From positions 1 to 64,000 of IMG/VR virus record IMGVR_UViG_3300002835_000066: a stretch of 64,000 nucleotides of DNA. One strand, written 5' to 3'. Within the stretch, counting starts at the first letter, position 1. Every line of letters begins with the position of its first letter. Both the position numbers and the translations under genes were made by a program. Below the pieces are notes generated by a model. That model was not told the origin of the DNA and ran no database searches. It worked only from the letters and a program-made list of their open reading frames with translations. This document shows positions 14,290-30,045 of the stretch, in pieces. The DNA is from a virus (Duplodnaviria > Heunggongvirae > Uroviricota > Caudoviricetes).

Positions 14290-14295
14290 GTCATG

Positions 14296-15051: not shown

Positions 15052-15071
15052 GCAAGCAGCCTTACTCTCTT

Positions 15072-15145
15072 TGGATGCCCCACGAGGACTCGAACCTCGA
15101 TTGACGGAGTCAAAGTCCGCTCTCTTACCATTAGAGGATGGGGCA
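15072..15145 (-). tRNA. tRNA-Gln (anticodon TTG)
   Basis: TGCCCCATCCTCTAATGGTAAGAGAGCGGACTTTGACTCCGT...GGTTCGAGTCCTCGTGGGGCATCCA. U1-A72 is typical of Gln. Confidence 0.8.
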
Positions 15146-15196
15146 GCATCAATATACGTGTATTATATATGCTCTATAGAGCAATGTCAAATATTT

Positions 15197-15272
15197 TGGA
15201 TGCCCGACTAGGGCTCGAACCTAGAACCTACTGAGTCAGAGTCAGTCGATCTACCAATTGATCTATCGGGCA
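15197..15272 (-). tRNA. tRNA-Gln (anticodon CTG)
   Basis: TGCCCGATAGATCAATTGGTAGATCGACTGACTCTGACTCAGT...GGTTCGAGCCCTAGTCGGGCATCCA. Confidence 0.8.
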
Positions 15273-15544
15273 ATATATCATTCATTATTAGAGGACACTC
15301 AAAGGTGCCAGTCGGTTTACAAAGCCGGTGCATTTTTTAACAGTGAATGTTCTCAAATAATGAATGGTTAGCCTTTTGTTGATAAGCGATCTATGTTTCC
15401 TGGCATTTCAGGATTGACCGCTTGAGAGGATCGTAATGTCCTCATCTGATAGTTTTTTCATCACCGCAAAGTGAATCCATCATTACCACCGCCCGTTCAT
15501 TTTTTATAGTGCTTTGCAGCCTCGTTCCGACTTGCACTTCTAAA

Positions 15545-15578
15545 TGGAAAACCCCAAGAACTTGAGTTCCCGGGGTCT
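15545..15578 (-). terminator. putative intrinsic terminator (imperfect GC-rich hairpin, then a U-run on the minus-strand transcript)
   Basis: Minus-strand sense ccccgggaactcaagttcttgggg followed by ttttccattt. Lies just 3' of the small ORF 15608-15748. Confidence 0.4.
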
Positions 15579-15607
15579 AAATAAACTAGTTTAACTATGT
15601 CTACTTA

Positions 15608-15748
15608 TCCGCCGGGCTCTTGTTCCACTGATGGTGTAAAGTCGCCGCGATTGCTTGTAATATATACTGCCGCAACTGCACCCATCGGAGCCAATAATTG
15701 TCCCCAGAGTATATGCTGTTTCAGCGATATGTTACAAGTAGTATTCAT
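15608..15748 (-). CDS. possible 47-aa membrane peptide (MNTTCNISLKQHILWGQLLAPMGAVAAVYITSNRGDFTPSVEQEPGG)
   Basis: Hand-translated. Below the ORF-track size cut-off. Has a hydrophobic core. Sits between an orphan copy of the promoter-leader motif and a terminator-like hairpin. Confidence 0.25.
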
Positions 15749-15902
15749 AGTAAGTTTATTTAGTCCTGGTTAATAATAGTGCATTTTAACGGGTAGTTTT
15801 TCAACTTTTCGTCAAATCTGCATTACATATACTCTTATATATCATTTCAAAACTGTTGTCAAGAAAAAAATGACCTTAGTCAGAAATTAATTTCTGAACG
15901 AG

Positions 15903-15933
15903 CTCCGTTTTCTCAGCTTATAATTAACTATAG
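15903..15933 (-). promoter_or_regulatory. conserved promoter/5'-leader motif, copy 1 of 3. An orphan copy with no adjacent start codon.
   Basis: Plus strand ctccgttttctcagcttataattaactatag. Near-identical blocks lie at 27613-27640 and 28549-28581, each directly abutting a minus-strand ATG. Confidence 0.45.
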
Positions 15934-15980
15934 CACCGTTAGCTTTCTATGTCAACCCCTAATTCACCTCTAAATAGAAG

Positions 15981-16541
15981 ATGAATTACGATTCCTTCTC
16001 TCACGGTCAAATCCAAAGCAAAGTCTGGCTTTGCAAAGAACTTGAACGCTTTGTCCATGCTAACATCAAGATTGCTATCTTAGGTAGCTGGTACAACGTG
16101 CTTTCATTTATGCTTCTAACACGAAACGCGGATAGATATCAATACATTTTGGGCGTAGACATTGACCCGGAGACAAAAGAGATTGCTGACAAGCTTACCG
16201 AAGCATGGCGAATCGGTAAGGATTATAAGGTTGAGAACATTATAGCGGACGCAAATGGTGTAAATTTAGCAGGCTACGACCTTGTAATCAACTGCTCACC
16301 GGAGCATATGAAGGGCAATGATTGGTTTGAGAATCTTGAGTACGGCACTATGGTGTGTATTCAATCAAGTGACGTACAGACAGCGGACGATGATGTTTGG
16401 AAGTGTGTCAACTCTAATGAGTCGTTGGAAGACCTGACACTAAAATACCCGTTATCAAAGTATCTTTACTCCGGGGAGAAGGAGATTAGATATAGCGATG
16501 ATAACGGGTATACGAGATTTATGCTAATCGGTATTAAATAA
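15981..16541 (+). CDS. possible class I SAM-dependent methyltransferase-like protein
   Basis: 186 aa. A Rossmann-like motif I region (IAILGSWYNVLSFMLL ... GVDIDPE), an acidic residue after beta-2, and DLVINCSP. Weak call. Confidence 0.3.
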   Translation: MNYDSFSHGQIQSKVWLCKELERFVHANIKIAILGSWYNVLSFMLLTRNADRYQYILGVDIDPETKEIADKLTEAWRIGKDYKVENIIADANGVNLAGYDLVINCSPEHMKGNDWFENLEYGTMVCIQSSDVQTADDDVWKCVNSNESLEDLTLKYPLSKYLYSGEKEIRYSDDNGYTRFMLIGIK

Positions 16542-16995
16542 GGCACTTACCAATAGCAGGGATTAAACCTGCTATCTTAGCAATATCCACAAGTTGTTCA
16601 TTGGTGTAACCAAACTCTATCAACCCACTCCTAATAACCTCAATACTAAGTTCATCTTTGAGAATCATAGAAACAGCTAAGGCATAGGGAGTAATCTTGA
16701 GGTCAGTGATTAAGAGGTCTCCGCTGATATTGCTAAAAGTCATATCTATTACAGCCGCAGCCACTTCTTCGCGGATATCATTTCCTCTAAGCTCATCGCT
16801 CATTGAAATTTCAAGAGCCAATTCACCGTATCCTACTGCTAAAGAAGCAGCAAGGGCACAAGAATGTGCTTCTACAGTAGAAAGACTAGTATCTTTCATA
16901 ACAGATTCAAGTCTGTTTACCAACTGCGATGCATAGTCAGGCAAGCTGATGGTTACAGTAGTAACCCAATTGCTAGGTTGTACTAGTGAATTCAT
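16534..16995 (-). CDS. hypothetical protein (153 aa, Ala/Leu-rich helical)
   Basis: ORF with a 4-nt start/stop overlap with the downstream gene. Confidence 0.45.
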   Translation of the reverse strand: MNSLVQPSNWVTTVTISLPDYASQLVNRLESVMKDTSLSTVEAHSCALAASLAVGYGELALEISMSDELRGNDIREEVAAAVIDMTFSNISGDLLITDLKITPYALAVSMILKDELSIEVIRSGLIEFGYTNEQLVDIAKIAGLIPAIGKCLI

Positions 16996-17408
16996 AATTT
17001 TGCTTTCTTTACAATTTCTTTATAGCCCTTCCAGCTAGGGTGAACCCCATCTGGCTGAACGTGTTTGGTACCAATGACTTGATCACCGTATTCATTAGCC
17101 AACTTAGTGACGATTACATTGATATTTGATTTGCAGAACTTTGGATTGCAAGGGGGCATAACCCATATTACTCGGTTTGAGCGAACTCGTTCCCGCATCT
17201 TGCGAAGTTCCTTTTCAGTCTTAACACCTTTATGGTCATTGGTACCAAGACTAATTACAACTATTTCAGAATTCAATGGAGTGTTACCCCACTTCTTATT
17301 CCACTGCCATGTGTTATAACCACCCTTGGAATACGATACGCATTCCTTAGGTGCAAACATCTTAGTACCTACTGCGATACTATCGCCTAAAATTAAACAT
17401 TCTAACAT
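16992..17408 (-). CDS. small SGNH hydrolase (GDSL esterase/lipase-like)
   Basis: 138 aa. LILGDSIAVG (block I GDS), ISLGTNDH (block III GxND), DGVHPS (block V DxxH). Confidence 0.6.
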   Translation of the reverse strand: MLECLILGDSIAVGTKMFAPKECVSYSKGGYNTWQWNKKWGNTPLNSEIVVISLGTNDHKGVKTEKELRKMRERVRSNRVIWVMPPCNPKFCKSNINVIVTKLANEYGDQVIGTKHVQPDGVHPSWKGYKEIVKKAKL

Positions 17409-18109
17409 TATCTATACTCCTTTTTTAAAATTTCAAATGTCTCTTCCCAAGTTGAAACATTATAATACTTAGTTGCATGTTGGGCAATGGTATAATCATT
17501 TCCACCGGGGTATATCTTATCTCCAAAGAATACAAAGGGAGATATATGTTCTGCTATCTGACTCTTATCTTTTCCTACAGGATGAATATCTATTCCTGTT
17601 TCGCCCGCGACTGTAGCCTCTAGCATTGGGAAATTTTCGCGGATAAGGAATGCGTAAAAATTTCGTTCATCTACACGAGTATCGTATTCCAAATATTCAG
17701 AACGTTCATTCATGTCTGCGTTGCGTCCAATAATACTGAAATTACAAGAACCGGGGCGCATTTCAATATGGTTACCCGTCCGCTTTGGGAAGGAACTCAA
17801 CTGCAATAGGCTTTCAAGATATTCATGTTGTTCGATAGTCAATGCAAAGTCGTTGACATACTGTAGTTCTCCGCTCACATAGAGAGCGTTTCCGCAGCAG
17901 CTATAGACACCTTTGACAGTATTACATATCTCTTCGCCAAGCTGCTCTAGCGTCTTCTCGTAGTCGCTTCCGGACACAAGATAGACATTATTAGTTTGGC
18001 AGAATGAAAGGAACCATTCCTCAAACGATGGAGCGATACGCTGTCTACTAGGAGTCAGCGTACCGTCTACATCAAATGCGAAATTAAAGAGCGAGGTGGC
18101 TGTAGTCAA
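17408..18109 (-). CDS. phosphomannomutase, eukaryotic PMM type (HAD superfamily)
   Basis: 233 aa. FAFDVDGTLTPSRQ matches the PMM N-terminus LFDVDGTLTPAR. VSGSDYEK..EQLG, KRTGNHIEMRPGSCNFSIIGR and the C-terminal FFGDKIYPGGNDY all align with human PMM2 as I remember it. Confidence 0.7.
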   Translation of the reverse strand: MTTATSLFNFAFDVDGTLTPSRQRIAPSFEEWFLSFCQTNNVYLVSGSDYEKTLEQLGEEICNTVKGVYSCCGNALYVSGELQYVNDFALTIEQHEYLESLLQLSSFPKRTGNHIEMRPGSCNFSIIGRNADMNERSEYLEYDTRVDERNFYAFLIRENFPMLEATVAGETGIDIHPVGKDKSQIAEHISPFVFFGDKIYPGGNDYTIAQHATKYYNVSTWEETFEILKKEYR

Positions 18110-19145
18110 ACAGTGCCTTCTCTTTCGCTCGTGTAAGGATCAGTCGGGCACCCTTGCTTTCAAAGATGAACTTACCTTCCTGACTGTTCAGATTGATAAG
18201 ATGCTCAGGGGCAAAACGAAGGTCAACCCAATCAGAGTCATCATCATTTGGATCAGGATCATATTCAATGTTGACACCCTTCATAGCTAGCGGGTTGCCG
18301 CGCCAAATTTCAGGACTAACAGACTTGATTTCCTTACCACCATCAACCAACTTAATCTCGTACTTAGCACCCTCATCGTATTCAGGCTTAGCGTTGAGCA
18401 TTTCAAGTGCTTCGGTCGGAGTCTCGTCGTAGCGATTCATTTCTTCAACAAGTGCCTTAAGCATATCAAAGTTGAACTCACCGAACAAACTAGTCAATGA
18501 ACAAATTTGGTCAATGTATTGCTTGTTAACGAGGTTGTCTTCACAGTATTCACGAATGAACACCTGATCCAAACCCTTGAAGTCTAGCAGATAGAAGATA
18601 CGACCAGGACGATTACGCATGTGCGAGTCAACACGCCACTTGTCATTCACTGTCAAGATGTAAAGCTTCTTTGAACCGAACACACCATCAAGCAGTGTGA
18701 GGATTTCTTCCTGCTTCTCGTGGTCATAGACCTTTTCAAATTCATCAAAGAGAACGACACACGGCTGGTCAATGTCCTGTAACAGCTTGAAGAAACCATC
18801 GCCAGTCCAATCACGATTGATTACGATAGTAGGAACGCCCTCCTTCGCAAGTTCAACGCTGATGTTCTTAGCAAGCAAAGTCTTACCCGAACCCTTTTCA
18901 CCGTTCAACAGAACACCAGTCTGTTGCGGGCGCTTCCAAAACGAGTTGATAATGCGGTCAGTATGACGCAGGGTATTACCATACATCTTAGATGGGATTT
19001 CAAAATCATCGATAGATTCAAGATAGAGGTTACCCATCGGGTCTACAGCAACGGTGTAGTTGCCTGCAGGAAGCTTCTCGTGTAGGTCCATTGCTTCCTT
19101 GCTGGAAACACGAAAGCTAGTACCGTTCTTCAAAAAATATGCCAT
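18084..19145 (-). CDS. AAA+/P-loop ATPase
   Basis: 353 aa. Walker A LNGEKGSGKT. Walker B VVLFDEFEK. Confidence 0.6.
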   Translation of the reverse strand: MAYFLKNGTSFRVSSKEAMDLHEKLPAGNYTVAVDPMGNLYLESIDDFEIPSKMYGNTLRHTDRIINSFWKRPQQTGVLLNGEKGSGKTLLAKNISVELAKEGVPTIVINRDWTGDGFFKLLQDIDQPCVVLFDEFEKVYDHEKQEEILTLLDGVFGSKKLYILTVNDKWRVDSHMRNRPGRIFYLLDFKGLDQVFIREYCEDNLVNKQYIDQICSLTSLFGEFNFDMLKALVEEMNRYDETPTEALEMLNAKPEYDEGAKYEIKLVDGGKEIKSVSPEIWRGNPLAMKGVNIEYDPDPNDDDSDWVDLRFAPEHLINLNSQEGKFIFESKGARLILTRAKEKALFDYSHLAL

Positions 19146-19156
19146 TACTATATTCC

Positions 19157-19357
19157 TTAATTAGAAAAAACTGCGGCAGCAACTACTACCAATATTACGG
19201 CAATTGCTTGCCACTTAACTCTTGAAAACATCATTTGAGTTTGCTGTGTGCGAGATTCAGTTGTTTGTTCTTGTGAAAACGCGGTAAGTCCGCGCAGTAA
19301 TGCAAACAGAGTAAATCCAACCGCAATAGCAATCAGAAAAATAAGTAGAAACATCAT
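19157..19357 (-). CDS. small membrane protein (two predicted TM helices)
   Basis: 66 aa. MMFLLIFLIAIAVGFTLFALL...AIAVILVVVAAAVF. Confidence 0.4.
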   Translation of the reverse strand: MMFLLIFLIAIAVGFTLFALLRGLTAFSQEQTTESRTQQTQMMFSRVKWQAIAVILVVVAAAVFSN

Positions 19358-19433
19358 TTACGGAACAATCCTACTATTACTAATAGGCATACGATAAGTC
19401 CTGCATATCCCAGTAAACCAATCATCGTATCAT

Positions 19434-19631
19434 TCATTCATCATTTCCTTTACACCATCGTTCCGCTTTTTTATATGCGGTACTTAGTCTTTTATATCGT
19501 TTACTTTCACCGACAGTTTTCATGGTGTAAGCATAACGAACAAAGTATCCTTGGTCATCTTCACACACCGTAGCACCTTTTCTGATGCCATATTGTGCCC
19601 AAACAGACCTTAATACGTTCATCTTACTCAT
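19434..19631 (-). CDS. hypothetical small basic protein
   Basis: Start trimmed to the internal Met (MSKMNVLRS...) to avoid a 50-nt overlap with the upstream gene. Confidence 0.35.
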   Translation of the reverse strand: MSKMNVLRSVWAQYGIRKGATVCEDDQGYFVRYAYTMKTVGESKRYKRLSTAYKKAERWCKGNDE

Positions 19632-19926
19632 GCTCTCCGGTCGCACTACGACCCCATCCTGACTTACGCACAAACAATTCTGGTTTTACTGTTGCAGTAG
19701 TGTATGTCGCAACCGTTAAGGCTGCTGCACCGATAAGGACAGCATGAGCGATTAGATTCACTCCCATAAGCGCATATGTACCGGTCGCAATAGAGAAGGC
19801 GATAGCCCACATCCAACCCAAAACTTGATATACCATATGCCTAATATTGCCTTCGGGTATATGTCGCAATGGACTTTTGTTGTAGTCAAAGATAAAATTC
19901 CAACTATGATATATTGCATTTTTCAT
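19624..19926 (-). CDS. membrane protein (2 TM)
   Basis: 100 aa with two hydrophobic helices (WMWAIAFSIATGTYALMGVNLIAHAVLIGAAALTVATY). Confidence 0.4.
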   Translation of the reverse strand: MKNAIYHSWNFIFDYNKSPLRHIPEGNIRHMVYQVLGWMWAIAFSIATGTYALMGVNLIAHAVLIGAAALTVATYTTATVKPELFVRKSGWGRSATGEHE

Positions 19927-19936
19927 TAGTGTATCC

Positions 19937-20260
19937 TCAAAATTTCAAAAGGTTAAATGCGAGAAGAATATCCCGCTTATCTTCATCAATGGGGTGAACT
20001 GCGATTGCAGTCATTTCACCACCATTCAAATCGGGTTCGCTGAAATGTTCATACTTAATCCCGAACTCAAACAGAATCTTTTCAACCGCAACAAGTGCCT
20101 CAAGATTCCTAACTCCGACGCAGGTAAAATATGTATTATCTGCATCAGCATCTTTACCCAACGCGGACCCTAACTTGTACGCAACGTGTGCAGTCTGCAC
20201 AAGCTGATACTCCTTAAAGATATCTTGACGGGTGAAAAAATATGCGTATCGTTTTGTCAT
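19937..20260 (-). CDS. peptidyl-tRNA hydrolase PTH2-like protein
   Basis: 107 aa. QLVQTAHVAYKLG resembles the PTH2 active-site region (Q..HA). The C-terminal block NGGEMTAIAVHP resembles the PTH2 motif TVTVLAIGP. Moderate. Confidence 0.4.
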   Translation of the reverse strand: MTKRYAYFFTRQDIFKEYQLVQTAHVAYKLGSALGKDADADNTYFTCVGVRNLEALVAVEKILFEFGIKYEHFSEPDLNGGEMTAIAVHPIDEDKRDILLAFNLLKF

Positions 20261-20291
20261 AGTCTTCTTATAGCAAACTATGAATCAGATG

Positions 20292-20525
20292 TCAACCTCT
20301 TTTTACGTTATGAATCGCCGTTGTAAGATTATTGATGTCAGTAGTAGTGCGACGAAACTGCCTGCTATTAAGTTGCAGGGCGGAAGCCATTTTGTGAAGT
20401 TGTTCCTTCAATTGACGAACCTCGTCCTCAAGGTTTTTGATTCTCTTTTTATCGTCTTTTTCAGGTATAGTGGTTGGATTGTCTTCTGTGATTATAATCG
20501 GTTTATTAGTATACATCTTTTTCAT
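20292..20525 (-). CDS. small coiled-coil protein
   Basis: 77 aa, heptad-rich (KNLEDEVRQLKEQLHKMASALQ). Preferred over the overlapping plus-strand ORF 20280..20543 because of operon orientation. Confidence 0.35.
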   Translation of the reverse strand: MKKMYTNKPIIITEDNPTTIPEKDDKKRIKNLEDEVRQLKEQLHKMASALQLNSRQFRRTTTDINNLTTAIHNVKRG

Positions 20526-22422
20526 TTGTTCTCTCTATCGTAATTTGTGTATTGCTTCGTCCTAATTTTTTACCGATGATTAATCGCATGAATAATATTT
20601 CTGGATCGGTGTCTATTATAGGCTCATGAAGATATTCTATATTTAGTAAGGAAGAGCCAGTCACTTCATTGTTCATCGCACTCTCATATATGCCATATGG
20701 GTCAGGTATACTGTATGGATATGTTTTTTTAGGTGAGTACATAAGTGCAGATTGTATGTCAAAAAGTGAGTCATGAATATCTTTGGGAAGCCCGGTATAT
20801 TCAATATCAAATATATTTCGGAGTTCTTCTATAATTGTCTCATGATTTAAGTAAAAATTTGATAGGCTCGCTAGAGGAATAGCGTAAGACTTGTTAATTA
20901 AATCTTGGTGTTCCTGTTTGTATTCCGCGTTGCTTAAGAATGCTGCAAAAAATGACTTCACTCTATGATATTCAGTTGAAAGATAACCGTCACCATTAAT
21001 TAAACAATTTTCCAATTTACTAATAATTTGGCTGAGTGGCATGATATTATTATTTGTTAAATAAAATATTATGATTTTGGCCCAGCCAGTGCTGTGGAAC
21101 ATACTTATAATATAGGTGAACATGTAGCTTTCGACTAGATCATCGAACGGCATAGTATTAGTTGCGCATACTATCTCTTCCTTTTCTATAATTTCATTAT
21201 CAACTGCAAGTCCGTTTGGCGAAGGTCTATTTACGGTTACAGTCTTTATTCCATGTATCTTCTTTTGCATAGAATTGTTAATCTCTGAGTTTTCTAAAAC
21301 TGTTAGTAAATGCGCTTGGTTTCCACTAAATTCAGCATCCAAACTTAATATCTTATAATAAGTATCTTTCCAAGACTCTTTAGTTTCTCCGGGGAGACCC
21401 AGTATAAGTTCAACTATAGGAATAAGTCCTATTTTGTTACATTCTTTTGCTACGTTTTCTATATCATTGAGTTGAAAATTAGAACGTCTAATATCTACTA
21501 GCGTTTGTTCATTCATGGATTGTAACGAAATTATTAAACCGTTAACCTCAGTGCCCTTATAGAATTCTTTAATTATATCAAGAGTTTCTTTCTTCTTAAA
21601 TGACTTAGCCCAAGTAACATATACGGTGCCTGGTTGACCAGTAAGATTTTGAGTTTTGCGTAAGTATTTTGTTATCCGCATGTCTCGTTCTACTAGTATG
21701 CCAAAGTTTGCATCCGATAAAAATACGTAGGGTATATTATGTTTGCTAAGCCAATCAATATCACTAAACACCCGTTCTTCACTAAAGCACTTAACTTTAC
21801 TTTGTGTTAGTGAACCCCAATCACAGAACGTGCATCCATACGGACAGCCCCTATTAGTTTCTAACGTGGCGCTCCATTCAACATTGGGATTTTCTCTTAT
21901 TAGTCTTTCAAAGATACCAGACGCATACGGGCTTGGGCTTACTAGCTCTTTCATTCTAGGAAATTTTATAACTTTATCAGGTGCACCATTGTCGTGAACA
22001 GTTAGTAGCATTTGAAGGAAAGCCTCTTCTCCTTCCCCAATTATGACTGAATCCACATACGGGTGGGTTTCAAAAAATGACTTTCTTTCTGGGTCCTCTG
22101 GTATCTGCGGTCCTCCGAAAAGAATCAAACATTCTGGATACTGTTCTTTTATCGCTTTGGCTACAACTTTCGTATATTCCCAATTCCATGTATAGCAACT
22201 AAATGCTGCTATTTTAGGATTGTCCATTCTTTCAATAACTTGGGCAACAGGTATTCTACTAAAAAAGATGTCAGCTAAATTGTAATTATTTTTGACTACA
22301 TCATTTTGTTCAGCATGACTCCAAAGTACTGCGACAGCATATGGTAGCCAACAAGTTATTTTACCATTTGGCAACGCCGAAGAATAATTTGGCTGAAATA
22401 GGTAGACATTTTTCACTAACAT
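20506..22422 (-). CDS. B12-binding-domain radical SAM enzyme (class B radical SAM family)
   Basis: 638 aa. N-terminal Rossmann-like cobalamin-binding region. ETNRGCPYGCTFCDW is CxxxCxxC. Confidence 0.7.
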   Translation of the reverse strand: MLVKNVYLFQPNYSSALPNGKITCWLPYAVAVLWSHAEQNDVVKNNYNLADIFFSRIPVAQVIERMDNPKIAAFSCYTWNWEYTKVVAKAIKEQYPECLILFGGPQIPEDPERKSFFETHPYVDSVIIGEGEEAFLQMLLTVHDNGAPDKVIKFPRMKELVSPSPYASGIFERLIRENPNVEWSATLETNRGCPYGCTFCDWGSLTQSKVKCFSEERVFSDIDWLSKHNIPYVFLSDANFGILVERDMRITKYLRKTQNLTGQPGTVYVTWAKSFKKKETLDIIKEFYKGTEVNGLIISLQSMNEQTLVDIRRSNFQLNDIENVAKECNKIGLIPIVELILGLPGETKESWKDTYYKILSLDAEFSGNQAHLLTVLENSEINNSMQKKIHGIKTVTVNRPSPNGLAVDNEIIEKEEIVCATNTMPFDDLVESYMFTYIISMFHSTGWAKIIIFYLTNNNIMPLSQIISKLENCLINGDGYLSTEYHRVKSFFAAFLSNAEYKQEHQDLINKSYAIPLASLSNFYLNHETIIEELRNIFDIEYTGLPKDIHDSLFDIQSALMYSPKKTYPYSIPDPYGIYESAMNNEVTGSSLLNIEYLHEPIIDTDPEILFMRLIIGKKLGRSNTQITIERTNEKDVY

Positions 22423-22464
22423 ATTTATGCGGTCGGATGTCTGCTGTAAAAATTGGTTTAGTTA

Positions 22465-23358
22465 TCACCGCTTCAAAGATGTCTTATACTTTATATATTC
22501 GGCAATATGCTCTGCTACATTTATTCCGCAGTATTTTTCAAATCCTTCAAAGCCGGGGGCAGAGTTAGCCTCGCATATCTTGTATCCATCTTTGTCAAAC
22601 AATAAGTCAATACCCGCAATTTCTAATCCACAGATTCTCGCTGTTTCTCTTGCGAGATATTCAATTTCACCATTAACTTCAAACGGCTCGCCATATCCAC
22701 CGTTAGATATGTTTGCTCTGAAATCTCCGGGCGGAGCTATTCTTTTCATTGCACCGATAACTTTACCACCGATGACTAATACACGCAAATCTTCGCCTGG
22801 CTTTTCACCGATATATTCTTGAACTAACAATGTCTTTGGCGTATTGAGATTACCGATGAACTCCATCATCTTTTTAAATGCAGTTTTATTCTCACACAGA
22901 TAGATGCCTTCACCATAGCTACCACTGATAATTTTAACAACACAGGGCCAGCCAATAAGATTGTCTGCAATATCTACATCTACGGGAAATCTAACAAGCA
23001 TTGTATTAGGTACTGGCATTCCTTTACTAGCTAGTAGCTGATGGCTACGCATTTTATCTTTTGCAATTTCTACGCCCACAGAAGAATTAATACATTTGAT
23101 ATGTTCTTCTTCAAACTGTCTAACGATAGCAGTGATGAACTCTGTGGTGCCTGAGCCTGTGCGGGCTAATACGATATCAGGCATGTCAAACTCTTGTCCA
23201 TTGTATTTGACACCATGACCAGTACCTTTTCCCACAACAACATCAAAGTTATCTGGGTGGTAAATGGTTGCAGGGATGCCTAAGTCACGAAGACTTTCTA
23301 CGAGCCGACGATTTTCGTATTCGTCCTCGTCTTTTTTAGACAATATTAGTATTGACAT
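22465..23358 (-). CDS. ATP-grasp ligase, RimK family (alpha-L-glutamate ligase-like)
   Basis: 297 aa. Overall RimK architecture (GWPCVVK...GSYGEGIYL ... LLVQEYI ... DLRVLVIGGKV ... GIDLLFDKDGYKICEANSAPGF). Confidence 0.75.
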   Translation of the reverse strand: MSILILSKKDEDEYENRRLVESLRDLGIPATIYHPDNFDVVVGKGTGHGVKYNGQEFDMPDIVLARTGSGTTEFITAIVRQFEEEHIKCINSSVGVEIAKDKMRSHQLLASKGMPVPNTMLVRFPVDVDIADNLIGWPCVVKIISGSYGEGIYLCENKTAFKKMMEFIGNLNTPKTLLVQEYIGEKPGEDLRVLVIGGKVIGAMKRIAPPGDFRANISNGGYGEPFEVNGEIEYLARETARICGLEIAGIDLLFDKDGYKICEANSAPGFEGFEKYCGINVAEHIAEYIKYKTSLKR

Positions 23359-23360
23359 TC

Positions 23361-23392
23361 GTTAATCCGTTTATAGTATTTATCGGATTAAC
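23361..23392 (-). promoter_or_regulatory. 9-bp stem / 14-nt loop hairpin ending 3 nt upstream of the ATP-grasp start codon, where it would occlude the ribosome-binding region
   Basis: gttaatccg ... cggattaac inverted repeat. The ATG (cat) is at 23356-23358. Confidence 0.4.
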
Positions 23393-23426
23393 ATACATAT
23401 AAAGAAACGGGGACTTGCCCCGTTTC
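23390..23426 (-). terminator. intrinsic terminator after the peroxiredoxin gene
   Basis: Plus-strand gaaacgggg-acttg-ccccgtttc hairpin. The minus-strand transcript continues UUUAUAUGUAUGUU. Confidence 0.55.
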
Positions 23427-23428
23427 CC

Positions 23429-23968
23429 TTAATTAGAACCCTGCAAGTATGCAAGGATTGTTTCAGGCGAAGTTTCGCCATACGGATCAGTTTCGCAGTT
23501 ATGCTCAATGCCATCTTCAATGAACCACTGTTCAATCTTGCCATTATCAACAATAACAGCATAGCGCCATGAACGAACTCCGAAGCCAACATTGTCCTTC
23601 TGAACAAGCATGTTCATCTGTGAAGTGAACACACCAGAACCGTCTGGAATAACCTTAACGTTCTGAATGTTCTGATCCTTAGCCCAGCAATTCATGACAA
23701 ATGCATCATTCACTGACATGCAGTAGATTTCATCGATGCCCAAAGCCTTAAACTGGTCAAAGTTCTGCTCAAAGCCCGGAAGCTGATAAGTTGAGCAAGT
23801 TGGGGTAAAAGCGCCCGGAAGCGAAAATAGGATTACTCGCTTACCAGCGAAATAATCATATGAAGTTACGTCCTGCCAACGATATGGATTCGGGCCTTCG
23901 ATGGAGTCATCACGGACACGAGTCTTAAAAGTTACAGCAGGAACAACTGTGGGTAATTGTTCAATCAT
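23429..23968 (-). CDS. peroxiredoxin (Prx5/glutaredoxin-dependent type)
   Basis: 179 aa. PGAFTPTCS peroxidatic-Cys motif and overall AhpC/TSA fold pattern. Confidence 0.8.
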   Translation of the reverse strand: MIEQLPTVVPAVTFKTRVRDDSIEGPNPYRWQDVTSYDYFAGKRVILFSLPGAFTPTCSTYQLPGFEQNFDQFKALGIDEIYCMSVNDAFVMNCWAKDQNIQNVKVIPDGSGVFTSQMNMLVQKDNVGFGVRSWRYAVIVDNGKIEQWFIEDGIEHNCETDPYGETSPETILAYLQGSN

Positions 23969-24023
23969 TAGTTTCTCCTAAAAAAATATTGGGTAGGAGC
24001 ACTATACCCCTACCCAATTATAC

Positions 24024-24821
24024 TTACTTTACGTTAACGATACCCTTGAAGTCGTAAGGGACGATGATCGTATTGACCTTGCCTTCCTTAACAGCTTCGG
24101 CAATCGTCACAAGAGCAGTTGCTTCCATGTACTTAGTAGCGCCTGCGTTAGCATTAAGAGCAGCAATACGCTCGGCTTCAAGCTTTGCAGTACGAACTTC
24201 TACCTGCTTCTGCTTTTCAGCATTTTGTGCCTCGACCAAAAGGTTAGCTGATGCTACGATATTCGCAGCAGGCTTAACCTGACGAACAAGAACCTGTGAG
24301 ATTGAAATTGCACCATCTAGCTTTTCAGCAGCGAGGCTAGCAACGATTTCAGCACGAATAAGCTGTTCAATTTCAGCACGGTTGTCAGCCATCTTCAACG
24401 ACTCGTAACGACGAGCAACCTTGTATGCAGCGTTACGACCAAGCTGACGAATGTAGTTATACATCAACAGAGTGTCGCCGTCTTCAGTTTCGGCGTGAAA
24501 TCCGCGATTCTTTTCAATATAGATTTCAGCAGCACTTGTTGGATTGATTGAATAGATAACTGCCATATCAAAGTCGGCAACAGTTGAGTTATCGCTAGCG
24601 AGAGGGGTCAAGTCAGCGATATCAACCTGAACATCCTTAGTCGGGAAAGTAAGAACTTCACCGATCAGAGTCTGGTTGATTGAACCAGGTTGAAGTTCAG
24701 TAGTTTGAATTTGCTTATCAAAGCCGCGACGAACGCCGACTTCACCCGTTTCAATACGAGTACAAGCAGCAGTCGTGGCCATCAAACCAGCGAGAACGGC
24801 AATCTTAGCAATACGATTCAT
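24024..24821 (-). CDS. SPFH/band-7 domain lipoprotein (HflC/prohibitin-like)
   Basis: 265 aa. Lipobox LMATTAAC. An SPFH-like core followed by an Ala/Glu-rich coiled-coil (AEKQKQVEVRTAKLEAERIAALNANAG). Confidence 0.5.
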   Translation of the reverse strand: MNRIAKIAVLAGLMATTAACTRIETGEVGVRRGFDKQIQTTELQPGSINQTLIGEVLTFPTKDVQVDIADLTPLASDNSTVADFDMAVIYSINPTSAAEIYIEKNRGFHAETEDGDTLLMYNYIRQLGRNAAYKVARRYESLKMADNRAEIEQLIRAEIVASLAAEKLDGAISISQVLVRQVKPAANIVASANLLVEAQNAEKQKQVEVRTAKLEAERIAALNANAGATKYMEATALVTIAEAVKEGKVNTIIVPYDFKGIVNVK

Positions 24822-24835
24822 TTTAATTTACTTCC

Positions 24836-25012
24836 TTAAAAGAGTAGAACGATTAATGTTGCAGCAACAATCGCTAGCAACGAACACAATGTACTATAGC
24901 CTAACCACTTTGTCAAGCTAATTTTTTCTTTTCCGGTCATTTTCCGAAAAATATCAATCCCAAAAAAGAAAATGAGAAAGAGTGAGATAAAGGCAACGAT
25001 AATTTTAACCAT
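24836..25012 (-). CDS. small 2-TM membrane protein immediately upstream of the SPFH gene (NfeD/YqiJ-like partner)
   Basis: 58 aa, hand-translated (MVKIIVAFISLFLIFFFGIDIFRKMTGKEKISLTKWLGYSTLCSLLAIVAATLIVLLF). Below the ORF-track cut-off. The position matches the usual SPFH operon layout. Confidence 0.4.
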   Translation of the reverse strand: MVKIIVAFISLFLIFFFGIDIFRKMTGKEKISLTKWLGYSTLCSLLAIVAATLIVLLF

Positions 25013-25070
25013 ACTTAGGTCTCCTTAGTGTTTTACGAAGATTAAGTTATAGCAGATAGTTAGGGGGTTG

Positions 25071-25325
25071 TCAAGAGTCTAGGTTGTCCGTTTTGCAACT
25101 TTGGTCAAAACGTTTCTCTTGTAGGGTAGGCTTGTTAAAAATCTTTTCTGAATGACACACTTGACATTTAGGATTGCCGCAATCTAGTGCATGATGCTTC
25201 GCAAGCCTGTGCGGCTGCTTTAACAGATGAGTCAATCCAAATGCTTTAGCAATACGCATTTGCTTTTTAATTACGTTTGCAGTATGCTGAAGGCGCTTTG
25301 CCCTCTTGTTGCGGTCGTCGCTCAC
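25071..25325 (-). CDS. small basic Cys-containing protein (GTG start in the track)
   Basis: 84 aa, highly basic, with CGNPKCQVCH. A 45-aa basic ORF (25322-25459) lies upstream and overlaps it by 4 nt. Confidence 0.35.
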   Translation of the reverse strand: MSDDRNKRAKRLQHTANVIKKQMRIAKAFGLTHLLKQPHRLAKHHALDCGNPKCQVCHSEKIFNKPTLQEKRFDQSCKTDNLDS

Positions 25326-25501
25326 TTGTTTCTCGTGTTTGGTGTTTGTGAATTTTTTTGTTTGTTGGCAGCTTCTTGCTGTTGCTGCCTTGTCCAGCCC
25401 ATTCTTTTTATATTACCGGACTCAATAACCCGTTGAATCAGTTTTTTGCCGGAACCCATATTATTCAAATCCATCAGTATCTCTCACTATCTATATACTT
25501 A

Positions 25502-27106
25502 TCACGTTGAAACATAATTAAGTTTCTTCTTTTTATAATCTTCAATGAAGTCTATCTTTGATTGAAGAGGTGGTCTGACTCCTCCCAAATCTCTGTATGA
25601 CCCTAGCATATCTTTATCATCTTTGCCGTATACATACCATTCATCCATACGCCAATGGTCTACGCCAAAGTCCATGTAGTCTTCTTTGCCCCATACATTA
25701 TTTGCAATCCAAAGAATTGCATCACGTTCGGTCATGCCTGTATTACTTTTCCAATGATATAATAACATAGTAGGCGCGCAGTTACGCATAAATGACTTAA
25801 TGTAATATTTTAATTCAGGAACAACATTATTACTTTGGAATATCCTCTTTAGATCAGGATGAGATTCATCTAGCATAATCTCATCTGTCTCTACTAAACT
25901 ATATCCTTGCTTTTCATAGGATGAGGATAAGGTACTTTGTTTAACATTATTATGTGTGCTAGTGATAAACAACGGAGCAAAGCTTAGGTGATTTGTTTTC
26001 CAATGTTCATCACACCACTTTTTAGTTTCGTTTAATGTTTCTTCTGTTTCGTATGGCAATCCTGCAATAAGGCTAATAGTGCCACTGTAATAACCATTAT
26101 GTTTCATGATATAATCTTTAGTGTCAAGAATAGCTTGTTGAATTTTTGCTGGGTCCATTCCTTTACCGGCAGCAGATGCACTAGGACGATGAAATGATTC
26201 TACTCCGTAAAACTGCCCATTGAACTGCATTCTAGCTAAATGTTCTATATCTTGCGGTCTTGTGTGCAACAGGTCTGCCCTAATATATCCACCAAAATTT
26301 GGTTTAAAAGGAAGTTTCTCTACAACGTCTGCATACTTGATGATCTTTTCGCTGTGGTCGTTAAACGTTTCATCTGCGATTGAATATCGGTGAATCCCAT
26401 AGCTATCATAGTTTCTCATCAAATTATCATGGAAATCTTCGGTGCATCTAGTGTGGTCATCTTTCACTCCTAAAATCGGATAGGTGCAAAACGAACACTT
26501 AAATCTGCATCCGCGGCTAGTTTCCATAGTTACGGCTTCGAATGGTTGTAGGAAATCTCTCTTTTCATAATCGATAGAAAGATTTCGCATTGGATAAGCA
26601 GGATAGTCGTGAAGTGCGTGAACTGTTCTTCTTTTATTTCCTTCTTTATCGATTACTTCTTCTTTATACTTTGCAGTACCTTTTAAGATTTCAAGTATAG
26701 CAAGTTCACCGTAACCCACTACCATGTAATCAGCAGGAATCAAGTGTACATTATGAAACTCTGTAGAACCAGTAACAATCAATATATCAGGATATGTTTG
26801 CTTCAACCACGTAAAAGAATAATAAAGGGTTTCAGTATTCATGTTGAATATTGCACCCAAACCAACAAACTTAGTGTTAGCATTCACTCGTGATTTTATA
26901 AGTTCTTTGAATTCTTCAAACGTCCAACTTGGGGCGAAGTCAATAACTTCAACATCAATTCCGTTCTGTCTAAGAAATGAAGCGATTCGGTGTGAACCGG
27001 CATGGCGGCGCACGGAACTAAAATTAATTCCGTGCATATCACTCGGACGAGAAGGCTCATCCGAGTTTATCATCCCTCCAAAAATTAAACCGTTGATTCT
27101 CATCAA
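25502..27106 (-). CDS. B12-binding-domain radical SAM enzyme, second copy
   Basis: 534 aa. ETSRGCRFKCSFCTYP is CxxxCxxC. N-terminal B12-binding-like Rossmann region. Paralog of 20506-22422. Confidence 0.7.
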   Translation of the reverse strand: MMRINGLIFGGMINSDEPSRPSDMHGINFSSVRRHAGSHRIASFLRQNGIDVEVIDFAPSWTFEEFKELIKSRVNANTKFVGLGAIFNMNTETLYYSFTWLKQTYPDILIVTGSTEFHNVHLIPADYMVVGYGELAILEILKGTAKYKEEVIDKEGNKRRTVHALHDYPAYPMRNLSIDYEKRDFLQPFEAVTMETSRGCRFKCSFCTYPILGVKDDHTRCTEDFHDNLMRNYDSYGIHRYSIADETFNDHSEKIIKYADVVEKLPFKPNFGGYIRADLLHTRPQDIEHLARMQFNGQFYGVESFHRPSASAAGKGMDPAKIQQAILDTKDYIMKHNGYYSGTISLIAGLPYETEETLNETKKWCDEHWKTNHLSFAPLFITSTHNNVKQSTLSSSYEKQGYSLVETDEIMLDESHPDLKRIFQSNNVVPELKYYIKSFMRNCAPTMLLYHWKSNTGMTERDAILWIANNVWGKEDYMDFGVDHWRMDEWYVYGKDDKDMLGSYRDLGGVRPPLQSKIDFIEDYKKKKLNYVST

Positions 27107-27257
27107 GTGTATTTAATGTCGGGATTACTTAGGATTTTCATTATCATATTGTTACGGACGATAACCTAAAACTAAAAGTCCCACACCGATTGCAGCATAG
27201 AACGAGAGTTGAAGGAAACCAAAATTCTTATGAATCCAATACATTTTACATTTATCC

Positions 27258-27614
27258 TTAAACGAGTTCTTTTTCATAAAGTTTGAATCCAAATGTGTCA
27301 CATACATAGATGTTACCGTTGATAACAAAGAGGTCACCAATCATTGAACTACGATGACCATACTTGCGACCACCGACAGTCATGAGCGGCATGATAACTT
27401 CAACGTTTTCGCTGAAATCTTCGTTATGCTCACCGTCTTCAAAAGTCGGTCCCATACTCCATGAACCAAAAATGTTCTGTGTGCGAGTAAAAGCATATTC
27501 ACATGCATCTATATCCGCTTCTTTGAAGCCCACCTGGTGCTTGGGGACATTCACGAGAGCAACAGTGTCCATTGCAGATGTTGCAGGGTCAAAATAGATA
27601 ACTTTAACTTGCAT
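27258..27614 (-). CDS. hypothetical protein (118 aa)
   Basis: Preceded by the conserved leader motif with GGAG 9 nt before the ATG. Confidence 0.5.
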   Translation of the reverse strand: MQVKVIYFDPATSAMDTVALVNVPKHQVGFKEADIDACEYAFTRTQNIFGSWSMGPTFEDGEHNEDFSENVEVIMPLMTVGGRKYGHRSSMIGDLFVINGNIYVCDTFGFKLYEKELV

Positions 27615-27640
27615 TTCGTATCTCCGTTTTCACAGCTTAT
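27613..27640 (-). promoter_or_regulatory. conserved promoter/5'-leader motif, copy 2
   Basis: Plus strand ctccgttttcacagcttataattaacac. In minus-strand sense this reads TTAATTATAAGCTGTGAAAACGGAGATACGAAATG. Confidence 0.45.
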
Positions 27641-27690
27641 AATTAACACTACACTAGTTTTGGGTAAGAGTCAACCGAAAAATGACCTAA

Positions 27691-27897
27691 TCAGTCAAAC
27701 GGTACGTTTTTATCTTGCTTTTTACCTGTATAGTGGTCATCGGATACGCAGATAGTCTTTACGGGCCCTTCACGAACTTGAGCGGGATATTGTTCAGCTA
27801 CCAATTCACACATAGTCTTATTGCTAAGTTGCATTTCTTGCTTAGACAGATACTCTCCCTCAGGAGTGAGGAAGAAGACAATGAGCCAAAACTTCAC
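27691..27897 (-). CDS. small protein, tandem paralog A (MKFWLIVFFLTPEGEYL...)
   Basis: 68 aa. Shares an N-terminal motif and Cys spacing with the next ORF. The two overlap in an ATGA start/stop. Confidence 0.5.
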   Translation of the reverse strand: MKFWLIVFFLTPEGEYLSKQEMQLSNKTMCELVAEQYPAQVREGPVKTICVSDDHYTGKKQDKNVPFD

Positions 27898-28094
27898 TGG
27901 TCAAGTCCACGCTGAATGCGATAGTCTTCATCGCTAGTGCAATAAAACTGCGCCTGCAAATCGCTGTTGACGATGGTCTTAGCCACTTGTCCGGCAAACT
28001 CTACGCACTGCTCTTTGTTAGCAGACTCATATATATCTTTAGCAACAAACTCGCCTTCCTGCGTGAACAGGTATACAATCAACCAAAAACTCAT
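27894..28094 (-). CDS. small protein, tandem paralog B (MSFWLIVYLFTQEGEFV...)
   Basis: 66 aa, paralog of 27691-27897. Confidence 0.5.
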   Translation of the reverse strand: MSFWLIVYLFTQEGEFVAKDIYESANKEQCVEFAGQVAKTIVNSDLQAQFYCTSDEDYRIQRGLDQ

Positions 28095-28345
28095 TACTTA
28101 TACTCCTTAAACCACTTGAGAACATTCTGTTTATTCTTATCAAAGAACGAAACATCCATACCAAAATGCTTCTTACTCTTGAAAATCTTACCCTGCCATG
28201 CGTAGCCGCCTGCATTTTTGGGGCGATACGTCCACTTAAGCTGACCGATAACTTCACCGTCACACTTGATAGCAAAGGTATGAAACTTTTCATTTCCGAG
28301 GTCGGCAAAACCATCACGAACTTTTGCAAGAGTCCACATAGACAA
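28094..28345 (-). CDS. hypothetical small protein (83 aa)
   Basis: Preferred over the overlapping frame 28039..28329 because of its composition and tight packing with its neighbours. Confidence 0.4.
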   Translation of the reverse strand: MSMWTLAKVRDGFADLGNEKFHTFAIKCDGEVIGQLKWTYRPKNAGGYAWQGKIFKSKKHFGMDVSFFDKNKQNVLKWFKEYK

Positions 28346-28350
28346 TCTCC

Positions 28351-28542
28351 TTAGCGAGGACGATAGGGGCGGGCACCTTGTTCATCAAGATAAACAGTGC
28401 GACCATCAGCAGTGCGAACGATGATGTCCTGAATCATTTCCTCAGGATCATTAGTAGTGTCCATATAGGCGCCAACAATCAGAACTTCGTTGCCATGTGC
28501 ATCATAGCTATAACCTTGAACCATATCACCGACTTGAAACAT
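28351..28542 (-). CDS. hypothetical small protein (64 aa, start at MFQVGDMVQGY)
   Basis: Start moved to the Met that sits at the conserved spacing from the leader motif (cat at 28540-28542). Confidence 0.45.
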   Translation of the reverse strand: MFQVGDMVQGYSYDAHGNEVLIVGAYMDTTNDPEEMIQDIIVRTADGRTVYLDEQGARPYRPR

Positions 28543-28548
28543 TTGATA

Positions 28549-28581
28549 TCTCCGTTTTCTCAGCTTATAATTTACTATAGC
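28549..28581 (-). promoter_or_regulatory. conserved promoter/5'-leader motif, copy 3
   Basis: Plus strand tctccgttttctcagcttataatttactatagc. In minus-strand sense this reads TAAATTATAAGCTGAGAAAACGGAGATATCAAATG. Confidence 0.45.
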
Positions 28582-28626
28582 AAAATGGGTAACCAATGTC
28601 AACCGTTTTCTTCCAAAAAATGAATA

Positions 28627-28887
28627 TTAGGCGGCAGCGGATTCTTCATGAGTGTAGTCGCGGAAAGTGACTACAAACTTCATCGTTTCAAGATAAGTAT
28701 CAGCAAGCCGGGCAATAGAGTAGTTGCAAGGAGACTTTTCGTTAGGATATTCAACGTAAATCCAATCAATTAGTTTGCCCGCTGCGTTGGGAGCCCGCAT
28801 AATCTTAACTACTTCACCACTGATAGTACCAGCAGCAGACTCATAACGAACACGATCACCAATAAGAACAGTTTTAGGGGTAGCCAT
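28627..28887 (-). CDS. hypothetical small protein (86 aa)
   Basis: ORF. Confidence 0.4.
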   Translation of the reverse strand: MATPKTVLIGDRVRYESAAGTISGEVVKIMRAPNAAGKLIDWIYVEYPNEKSPCNYSIARLADTYLETMKFVVTFRDYTHEESAAA

Positions 28888-28947
28888 AAGTAGAACCTTT
28901 CGTTGCTCTTTATTTATGACTGATAATATCAGTTTTTGATAATCATG

Positions 28948-30045
28948 TCAACTAAAAAGATCAACTTTTTCCCAAGGGAGATACGATTTTCCAAAGTGAC
29001 CATAGTTAGTAGTAGAACTATAGATTGGTCTAAACAGGTCAAATCTTTCAATAATACCCTTAGGAGTTAAATCTACATTCTCTAGAATATACTTTTCTAA
29101 GTCTTTGCTTTCACCATCACTGTCAACGTAGAAGCTAGTTGGTTCTTCAACCCCGATTGCATAGCTAAGCTGAATCTGTGCCCAAGTTGCTTTGCCGCTT
29201 GCTACAATATTATTAGCAATGTAACGAGCCATGTAAGCAGCACTGCGGTCAACCTTTGTCGGATCCTTGCCGCTGAATGCGCCGCCGCCGTGTGGTGCTG
29301 CGCCGCCATATGTATCAACGATAATCTTACGCCCAGTAAGTCCAGTGTCACCGTCTGGTCCTCCGATCACGAACCTACCTGTAGGGTTAATCAAGAACTT
29401 AGTTTCTTTGTCAATCAAATCTGTTGGTACAACAGCACGAATAATCTGTTCAATACCATTACGAACTTCGCTGATATCAACGTCAGGGTGATGCTGTGAT
29501 GAGCAAACAATCTTATCAATTCTGTTGATTGTACCATCGTCATTATATTCAACGGTTACTTGACTCTTGCTATCAGGTCCCATCCAAATTTGACCGTCAT
29601 TCTTTCTCAAATGAGTTAGGGTCTCTACAATCTTATGACTATAATAGATTGCTGCTGGCATGTTGTTTTCTGTTTCGTTGACTGCATAACCAAACATCAA
29701 TCCTTGATCACCTGCACCGAAATTATCAGTACCTAATGCAATGTCTGGACTTTGTCCGTGCATCAAATTGATTATGTCAGCGGTTTGCCAATGAAATCCT
29801 TCCTGTTCGTACCCAACATTTTTGATCACTTTACGAATTATGTAGTCTAAATCTAGCGGATCAATTTCGCCTTTAAACTCGCCAGCAACAATTACTTTAT
29901 TAGTTGTTACTAACGTTTCACACGCACATCGTAATGCTGGATCCAAATTACTCATAACCATATCTAATACACCATCACTGATGGCGTCGGCTATTTTATC
30001 TGGGTGACCTTCGGATACTGATTCACTGGTAAACAGGTATGACAT
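28948..30045 (-). CDS. metK: S-adenosylmethionine synthetase
   Basis: Start at the internal Met (MSYLFTSESVSEGHPDK, cat at 30043-30045). The GHPDK N-terminal motif, GGGAFSGKDPTKVDRSAAYMARYIA (the MAT signature GGGAFSGKDxTKVDRS) and the right length (366 aa). Confidence 0.9.
   Translation of the reverse strand: MSYLFTSESVSEGHPDKIADAISDGVLDMVMSNLDPALRCACETLVTTNKVIVAGEFKGEIDPLDLDYIIRKVIKNVGYEQEGFHWQTADIINLMHGQSPDIALGTDNFGAGDQGLMFGYAVNETENNMPAAIYYSHKIVETLTHLRKNDGQIWMGPDSKSQVTVEYNDDGTINRIDKIVCSSQHHPDVDISEVRNGIEQIIRAVVPTDLIDKETKFLINPTGRFVIGGPDGDTGLTGRKIIVDTYGGAAPHGGGAFSGKDPTKVDRSAAYMARYIANNIVASGKATWAQIQLSYAIGVEEPTSFYVDSDGESKDLEKYILENVDLTPKGIIERFDLFRPIYSSTTNYGHFGKSYLPWEKVDLFS

Follow-up and report, generated by a model that had tools for sequence, protein, structure and literature searches.

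A repeated leader block of probable early-gene cassettes in a tRNA-rich freshwater phage lineage

Introduction

Why would a phage genome carry the same short block of DNA three times, twice directly before a start codon and once before no gene at all? The case comes from IMG/VR record IMGVR_UViG_3300002835_000066, a virus of the Caudoviricetes, of which positions 1 to 64,000 were analysed (hereafter the window, 64,000 nucleotides (nt) long). The original prediction, made from the letters of this window, described a conserved promoter-plus-leader motif of about 35 nt in three copies, and proposed that it may be a phage-specific early or middle promoter or a regulator binding site, with the orphan copy perhaps driving a non-coding RNA. 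The observation is confirmed and its interpretation partly supported. We consider it probable (roughly 0.75) that the block is the promoter-proximal transcribed segment, here called leader A, of compact early-gene cassettes lying behind host-type promoters. The orphan copy reads as an emptied cassette slot, the scar of a gene loss and not a special element.

A repeated block between promoter and start codon

The minus strand of the window holds exactly three copies of TTATAAGCTG(A/T)GAAAACGGAG, at 15903-15923, 27622-27642 and 28550-28570, a 21-mer that in degenerate form reads TTATAAGCTGWGAAAACGGAG; 0.01 copies are expected by chance and none of 100 shuffles gave three. The search for further copies found no fourth in the window, even with three mismatches allowed, and a profile hidden Markov model built on the whole cassette matched these three alone. 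The copies are also identical in the 3 nt on their 5' side, (T/A)AA, which extends the block to 24 nt. In front of each stand GGTTGAC(A/T), 17 nt of spacer and a -10 element of TATAGT or TAGTGT, with the block beginning 3 nt later; the GGTTGAC, the -10 element and the 24-nt block are all that the three have in common, the spacer sequences being different. The repeat is real, but at about 35 nt it was drawn too small, since this promoter precedes every copy. Likewise, the description as a promoter-associated leader stands with respect to its true Shine-Dalgarno and ATG geometry and the unrelated genes behind it, but the core TTATAAGCTG is not itself a promoter, a sigma-70-type -35/-10 pair lying directly 5' of it. 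Because each copy begins 3 nt after such a promoter, the block would comprise the discriminator, the start site, the initial transcribed region and the Shine-Dalgarno sequence.

Copy 1 (28540-28602, minus strand) consists of a -35 element TTGACA (28602-28597), a 17-nt spacer, an extended -10 element TGcTATAGT (hexamer 28579-28574), the block (28573-28550) ending in GGAG (28553-28550), and an ATG (28542-28540), with transcription predicted to start near 28568-28566. Copy 2 (27612-27690, minus strand) begins with a left border TTAGGTCATTTTTCGG (27690-27675), followed by the -35 element TTGACT (27674-27669), a 17-nt spacer, the -10 element TAGTGT (27651-27646), the T variant of the block (27645-27622) with GGAG at 27625-27622, and an ATG (27614-27612). 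The claim that the motif abuts the starts of two open reading frames (ORFs), 27258-27614 and 28351-28542, with GGAG at Shine-Dalgarno-like spacing was borne out, as 7 nt separate GGAG from ATG 28542 (an ORF of 63 amino acids (aa) with its stop at 28351) and from ATG 27614 (118-aa ORF, 27258-27614). Copy 1 is followed by four small ORFs (28542-27691) and copy 2 by the 118-aa ORF (27614-27258); these genes occupy 27258-28542 on the minus strand and gave no Pfam match at the default threshold. The orphan copy (15903-15955, minus strand) has the -35 element TTGACA (15955-15950), the 17-nt spacer ATAGAAAGCTAACGGTGC, a -10 element TGcTATAGT (hexamer 15932-15927) and the block (15926-15903) with its GGAG. 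As had been described for this ORF-poor region, a start codon is absent; no ATG, GTG or TTG is present where the other copies have theirs.

In a consensus scan the promoters of the orphan and of copy 1 scored 11/12, each with an extended -10 element (TGn). As read from the sequence, the block (ATAAGCTGAGAAAACGGAG) has purines at 15 of 19 positions and lacks dyad symmetry, and the leaders of coding copies 1 and 2 fold like shuffles (z = -0.29 and +0.38). AT-rich stretches lie 5' of the -35 element at copy 2 (AGGTCATTTTTCGG), at copy 1 (CATTTTTTGGAAGAAAACGG) and at P2, a promoter beside the orphan (AGGTCATTTTTTTC); the orphan itself lacks such a stretch and adjoins a divergent gene. Several other near-consensus promoters of the window (875, 2982, 12717, 15190, 24916 and 28951) have different downstream sequences, some running straight into tRNAs, so the block is not simply part of every promoter.

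Distribution of the block in other sequences

Matches to the exact 21-mer came from 21 IMG/VR contigs and from 54 contigs of metagenomes, many of the latter with sample names that refer to freshwater lakes. Among 185,579 bacterial and archaeal genomes there was none. The 89 instances collapse to 63 unique contexts. A -35 element TTGAC[ATC] with a 17-nt spacer precedes the block in 59/61 unique instances, and the -10 hexamers are restricted to TAGTGT (27), TATAGT (25), TAGAGT (7) and TATATT (2). No independent copy without an upstream -35/-10 pair at this fixed distance was seen among them. The presence of sigma-70-type elements directly upstream in 59/61 instances argues against the proposal of a phage-specific early or middle promoter type. 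GGAG stands 7 nt from an ATG in 46 unique instances, and the start codon is missing in just one of the 63 unique contexts, that of the window orphan (with identical copies in two other loci, L082 and L083).

The proteins encoded downstream form 10 families that are mutually unrelated at E 1e-4, so the spread of the block is not a matter of gene duplication. One of these families is RIIA (phrog_612, 1.9e-118), which fits early expression, rIIA being a classic early gene of T4. Apart from RIIA and phrog_10415, Pfam and PHROG searches with the small ORFs behind the cassettes returned nothing informative.

The proposed early-gene cassette

From the 5' side, the cassette would be ordered as an upstream stop codon, (A)GGTCATTTTT(C/T)GG, TTGAC(A/T), a 17-nt spacer, TA(T/G)(A/T)GT, (T/G/A)AA, TTATAAGCTGAGAAAACGGAG, 7 nt and ATG. 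Host sigma-70 RNA polymerase would start about 6-8 nt past the -10 element, within TTATAAG, and the resulting leader of about 25-27 nt would be purine-rich and unstructured, with GGAG 7 nt before the ATG; both the start site and the leader length are predictions from standard promoter geometry. Two causes may underlie the near-invariance of the block. One is function, in the form of efficient escape from a near-consensus promoter combined with efficient translation initiation, and the other is copying between cassettes by homologous recombination, which would also insert, swap and delete small genes between cassettes. If so, the cassette could serve to locate early transcription units and the limits of genes in genomes without isolate or annotation, and leader A would be a candidate strong promoter/5'-untranslated-region part.

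Several points weigh against this reading. We infer the start site and the early timing, together with the roles in escape and translation and the recombination mechanism, from the sequence of an uncultivated phage. The -10 element TAGTGT matches the consensus at 3/6 positions and is weak, and 21 invariant bases are more than promoter escape and a 4-nt Shine-Dalgarno sequence would obviously need. Most loci were retrieved by an exact match to the block, so its invariance is partly an ascertainment effect; an unbiased sample, obtained through the 118-aa protein, has leader A in 8/10 orthologues at >=76% identity and is small. Finally, the three window copies lack the stem-loop that defines the promoter-early stem-loops (PeSLs) of T4-type phages, the closest known system considered below.

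Mosaic structure of the cassette family

The mosaicism and the indels described in this and the following section are, like the anatomy and distribution given above, direct observations. Among the loci of relatives (L numbers), the cassette profile finds diverged members with other leader classes, namely leader B (GAATATATAGCAAGGAG...ATG), TAATTATAGACAGAGAAAGGAG...ATG and forms that seem to lack a leader, such as TATAGTGAATCTTATG; compared with these discrete classes, near-variants of the 21-mer are rare. Leader A is paired with at least five -35/-10 spacer families, two of which (S1 and S3) occur with leader B too, and orthologous genes stand behind different leaders in L001, L129 and L130. 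Orthologues of the 118-aa gene share a mean pairwise identity of 0.92-0.97 over the stretch from the -35 element to the Shine-Dalgarno sequence, of about 0.8 in the coding sequence and of 0.2-0.4 upstream of AGGTCATTTT, the point at which their homology stops on the upstream side. The left border AGGTCATTTTTYNKTTGAC is shared by copy 2 and by P2 beside the orphan, the two places of the window that have it.

Some relatives (L002, L004, L018 and L021) have a hairpin of -26 to -30 kcal/mol that overlaps the border, -35 element and spacer, with a T-run after it, or a terminator just upstream. Terminator hairpins upstream of window copies 1 and 2 were considered and rejected, as the upstream-plus-spacer RNA of these copies folds no better than shuffles (z = +1.54 and 0.00). 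Since relatives have strong hairpins while the window copies have none, the stem-loop appears to be optional in this lineage.

The 118-aa gene itself appears to be expressed from different cassette types in different lineages. Its orthologues in L129 and L130 have another leader behind a promoter of the same kind, and orthologues with 52-53% identity (L131-L133, at about 1390-1500) have a GTTTACA-type -35 element, of T4 early-promoter flavour, and a GC-rich leader hairpin GGGGCCGCGCCCC. Variation of the -35 element was also observed at a leader-A cassette in L007 (9419-9471), where TTGCTT replaces TTGACA while the orthologous cassettes of L008, L009 and L013 have TTGACA; TTGCTT resembles the MotA-box core of T4 and the 'PmSL' variant described for phage nt-1. 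At four further sites with promoters of the same family (L004 1891, L018 8848, L012 10921 and L021 6575) the ATG follows the -10 element by only 7-10 nt (TATAGTGAATCTTATG and TAGAGTTAATCTATG are examples), which points to leaderless mRNAs among these phages.

Gain and loss of genes, and the origin of the orphan copy

A promoter-plus-gene unit of 334 bp (28620-28953, minus strand), made up of a T-run, promoter P28951 (TTGACA, 17 nt, TATTAT) and an 86-aa ORF (28627-28887), is present in the window and in L015 and absent from L020, L005, L011 and L001. Both junctions of this indel fall in the T-run/-35 part of cassettes. L001, L011 and L019 likewise lack the pair of small ORFs that immediately precedes copy 2 (27691-28094) or have them replaced. 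In the window, the TGA stop codon of the SAM synthetase gene metK lies within the -35 TTGACA of P28951.

Two elements are constant at the orphan locus, the promoter on the left (GGTTGACATAGAAAGCTAACGGTGCTATA) and the element on the right (TTTTTTT-CTTGACAAC...TATAAG, P2), and the interior between them is variable. The interior holds one gene in L022, a second and different gene in L023 and L024, a third in L108 and L089, and a fourth in L099 and L115; L101 has no gene but a truncated leader B plus a hairpin terminator, and the window and L098 have no gene but leader A, 18 nt and TCTGACTAA. Because relatives carry four genes or none between the same promoters, the orphan is best taken for an emptied slot. 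The scar (15864-15902, minus strand) comprises 18 nt, including the palindrome TCAGAAATTAATTTCTGA (15897-15880), followed by TCTGACTAA and the cassette border AGGTCATTTTTTT. The 9 nt of TCTGACTAA are identical to the final two codons and stop of the gene in L023 and L024. In L098 the same scar has drifted and GGAG has become GAAG, a decay that would be expected if nothing is translated there. The orphan copy would thus be composed of an old promoter, a remnant of leader A, 18 nt, the final 9 nt of the lost gene and the border of the next cassette, that of P2.

P2 (15834-15862, minus strand; TTGACA 15862-15857, 17 nt, TATAAG 15839-15834) heads the mini-ORF unit downstream, and it is kept in relatives, including those without the orphan leader. 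A promoter homologous to that of the orphan drives the downstream unit directly in L029 and L025, and L027 and L028 have P2 only. The locus provides a clean natural series in which four cargo genes, empty scars of two kinds and a Shine-Dalgarno sequence in decay document gene gain and loss at such cassettes.

Alternative explanations

The strict conservation of the leader raises the question of whether it is a recognition site for a trans-acting factor that jointly controls early genes, a reading that is compatible with the cassettes and that we hold to be doubtful. The factor could be a DNA repressor with its operator at +1 to +20, shutting off early promoters, or could work at the RNA level, either as an endonuclease cutting GGAG in the manner of RegB or as a translational repressor in the manner of RegA. 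Identity over 21-24 nt across 10 unrelated genes and lineages with about 20% coding-sequence divergence would fit such a factor, as would a -35/-10 spacer that varies freely while the leader is fixed and leader classes that are discrete and form no continuum; T4 offers precedents, as its RegB cuts GGAG in early mRNAs and its RegA binds at start sites. Yet the block has no dyad symmetry, the same promoters occur with other leaders, orthologous genes have different leaders, and no candidate regulator was identified among the window ORFs screened, which were only part of the total; moreover, recombinational copying would already account for the identity. There is an outside chance that the leader is a regulon address tag read by a phage factor (as DNA or RNA), or the crossover site of an integron-like cassette exchange in large phages, in which case any gene placed behind it would gain the right timing and control at once. 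A separate promoter function for TTATAAG(CTG), as the middle/late -10-like box of a phage-modified or phage-encoded polymerase or as a sigma-dependent pause site, is unlikely, and markedly so. P2 does use TATAAG as its -10 element and most leader classes of the lineage show YATAG or TATAAG 4-5 nt past the -10 element, but the block is always accompanied by an upstream -35/-10 pair at a fixed distance and the position of TTATAAG matches the +1 region of a sigma-70 promoter. TTATAAG as the -10 element of a second, overlapping promoter was rejected, there being no conserved -35-like partner 17 nt upstream of TATAAG.

Whether the orphan is a dedicated promoter for a non-coding RNA, as had been suggested, concerns either a short RNA of some 55 nt with its end at the T7 run or the structured RNA further downstream; we regard this, too, as unlikely. 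In its favour, the 59-nt RNA between the predicted start and the T-run reaches a folding energy of -13.4 kcal/mol (z = -2.4; 3/200 shuffles equal), L101 has a truncated leader B and then a clean hairpin and T-run at the same place, the orphan-homologous promoter of L029 and L025 directly drives the mini-ORF unit, and a covarying RNA does lie downstream. The 60 nt in question are nevertheless an identifiable junction of leader A, the 3' end of the L023/L024 gene and a cassette border, that is, a deletion scar followed by P2, and this scar decays in L098. The downstream unit has its own conserved P2, which is present also in relatives without the orphan leader, and the structured RNA lies past an ORF and a terminator. 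At most, the orphan could add read-through into the downstream unit. The last candidate, a repeated coding remnant or a chance repeat, has a negligible probability. The frame of copy 1 is open from the TTG of the -35 element through the ATG (ORF 28351-28602), but two frames of the block hold stops, the T variant at 27622 closes the third frame of copy 2 with a TGA, the proteins encoded downstream share no relationship and the expected number of copies is 0.01; a coding remnant was rejected on the stops and the unrelated proteins.

Comparison with known systems

Early-gene cassettes of the proposed kind have a close counterpart in the PeSLs, known from the T4-type phages RB49/phi1, PST/T4 and nt-1/KVP40 (Arbiol et al. 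2010, PMC2839356; Comeau et al. 2014, PMC4122927). Crossovers at PeSLs were mapped between the -10 element and the Shine-Dalgarno/ATG, and homologous recombination among PeSLs has been shown or proposed for T4-type phages (PMC2839356, PMC4122927). The likeness extends to a compact intergenic cassette with an AT/T-rich stretch, a near-consensus sigma-70 promoter with a 17-nt spacer, and a Shine-Dalgarno sequence and ATG of a small gene, often an ORFan. It also includes the many copies per genome, the degraded or 'half' cassettes left behind (compare the orphan), indels and replacements between close relatives that sit at cassettes, and crossovers between the -10 element and the Shine-Dalgarno/ATG or in the AT-rich part. 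As in RB49, the strong hairpins of the relatives overlap the -35 element and spacer or lie just upstream. The features found here are thus sigma-70-like boxes about 17 nt apart, a Shine-Dalgarno sequence and start codon at the 3' end, AT-rich sequence upstream and association with indels, whereas a stem-loop within or next to the promoter is wanting, the three window copies having none that is significant. A further difference is that 21-24 nt are invariant here between the -10 element and the Shine-Dalgarno sequence, while PeSL alignments rest mainly on the promoter and the Shine-Dalgarno sequence. The cassettes lie in a plastic region whose small ORFs have no family matches; relatives encode RIIA, but among the genes of the window none of the T4 core was noticed. 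The lineage is uncultivated, from freshwater and without a close isolate, and a place among the T4-type phages is only a possibility. Among PeSL-like cassettes, those of this undescribed phage lineage are unusual in that their leader is invariant and their stem-loop optional. The PeSL idea, in which such elements serve as plug-in sockets and recombination linkers for accessory genes, would then reach a tRNA-rich freshwater lineage with contigs of up to 360 kb.

With respect to the initial transcribed region, the purine-rich initial transcribed sequence of the T5 promoter N25 controls promoter escape about 10-fold (PMC12464699). Both cases combine a near-consensus sigma-70 promoter (escape-limited in T5) with a purine-rich +1 to +20 segment that starts with A/T, and with a GGAG-type Shine-Dalgarno sequence at its end; in T5 the segment sets productive output. 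The N25 segment, which we take to be ATAAATTTGAGAGAGGAG, resembles ATAAGCTGAGAAAACGGAG here and is offered as a lead only. A third parallel is the RegB/RegA system of T4, in which RegB cuts GGAG in Shine-Dalgarno regions and RegA is a translational repressor. It shares with the present case a set of early mRNAs with a common short 5' element including GGAG, but the T4 targets are short degenerate motifs and not an invariant block of 21 nt, and no homologue of RegB or RegA came to light, although no search was directed at them.

The transcription unit downstream of the orphan

The orphan sits between a tRNA-Gln gene (15197-15272) and a divergent plus-strand gene (15981-16541). The unit headed by P2 opens with about 90-100 nt of conserved 5' sequence, after which come a small ORF, a covarying terminator hairpin and an RNA of about 175 nt. 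Both the 47-aa ORF (15605-15748, minus strand) and the terminator-like hairpin with its T-run (15546-15577, minus strand) were found as originally described, the hairpin following the ORF and its stem covarying among relatives. The ORF keeps its frame open in 19 distinct variants (45-47 aa), with indels in multiples of three and conserved ISLKQH, LWG, YPTSIRGDF and C-terminal PGG; its third-codon-position excess is mild. It has no nearby Shine-Dalgarno sequence, carries an invariant CCAGGACTAAATA 10-25 nt upstream, and always lies about 230-285 nt ahead of the structured RNA. One speculation, given the radical SAM, SPASM and ATP-grasp genes of the window, is that it encodes the precursor of a modified peptide.

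The structured RNA (RNA2; 15366-15539, minus strand) is conserved, lies between the terminator and tRNA-Gln, 390 nt from the orphan, and is not part of the cassette. In RNA2, 97.8% of cells are paired, compared with 31-49% in slid controls, and 11 pairs show compensatory changes; none of 500 shuffles reached the observed value on 4/5 measures, the count of further pair types being the one that was not above shuffles (353/500). The motif of its 5' hairpin is invariant and turned up in 32 viral contigs, among them some of 333-361 kb, and L104, L113 and L117 have an RNA2 with a variant 3' half. Neither RNA2 nor the leader matched Rfam, where only tRNAs of the window reach the gathering score, and 15250-16000 gave nothing meaningful at E up to 10. 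An RNase P-like identity, considered for AAGUCGG and ACAACAUAGAUCGCUUAUC (compare CR-I and CR-V), was rejected, as UCGCUU pairs locally with AAGCGG with compensatory changes and the Rfam RNase P models give no match. Hammerhead-like and C/D-box-like strings were rejected as well, not being conserved across relatives. A long hairpin (CATTCATTATTTGAGAACA ... TGTCCTCTAATAATGAATG; 15290-15365, minus strand) with conserved ends and a variable interior directly precedes tRNA-Gln(CTG). RNA2 and the 47-aa ORF, leads of their own, may surpass the motif in novelty.

The phage

The window belongs to a phage with 28 tRNA genes (697-15272, minus strand), interspersed with HNH/homing and other endonuclease genes and with near-consensus promoters. 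It encodes NrdAB, two B12-binding radical S-adenosylmethionine (SAM) proteins, a SPASM radical SAM protein, SAM synthetase (MetK), a RimK-type ATP-grasp ligase and very large tail-fibre-like structural proteins. A megablast search with 15000-29000 and a tblastn search with a 993-aa ORF against 50,697 phage records returned no match. NrdA and a tail-fibre-like protein have distant matches only, the best isolate matches being 60% for NrdA (Xanthomonas phage BUDD) and about 30-35% to virion proteins of Vibrio phages.

Several minor features were observed alongside. The SAM-related and modifying enzymes form a cluster on the minus strand (10696-12207, 20506-22422, 22465-23358, 25502-27106 and 28948-30093). 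A 3191-aa ORF (48647-58222, minus strand) contains repeated phrog_30390 and tail-fibre-like segments and is flanked by paralogues related to phrog_8510 and phrog_24074. Among the tRNA genes, a perfect TTGACA-17-TATAAT promoter (15190-15162) lies between two tRNA-Gln genes, and tRNA-Ile (7497-7590) is unusually long at 94 nt and possibly contains an intron.

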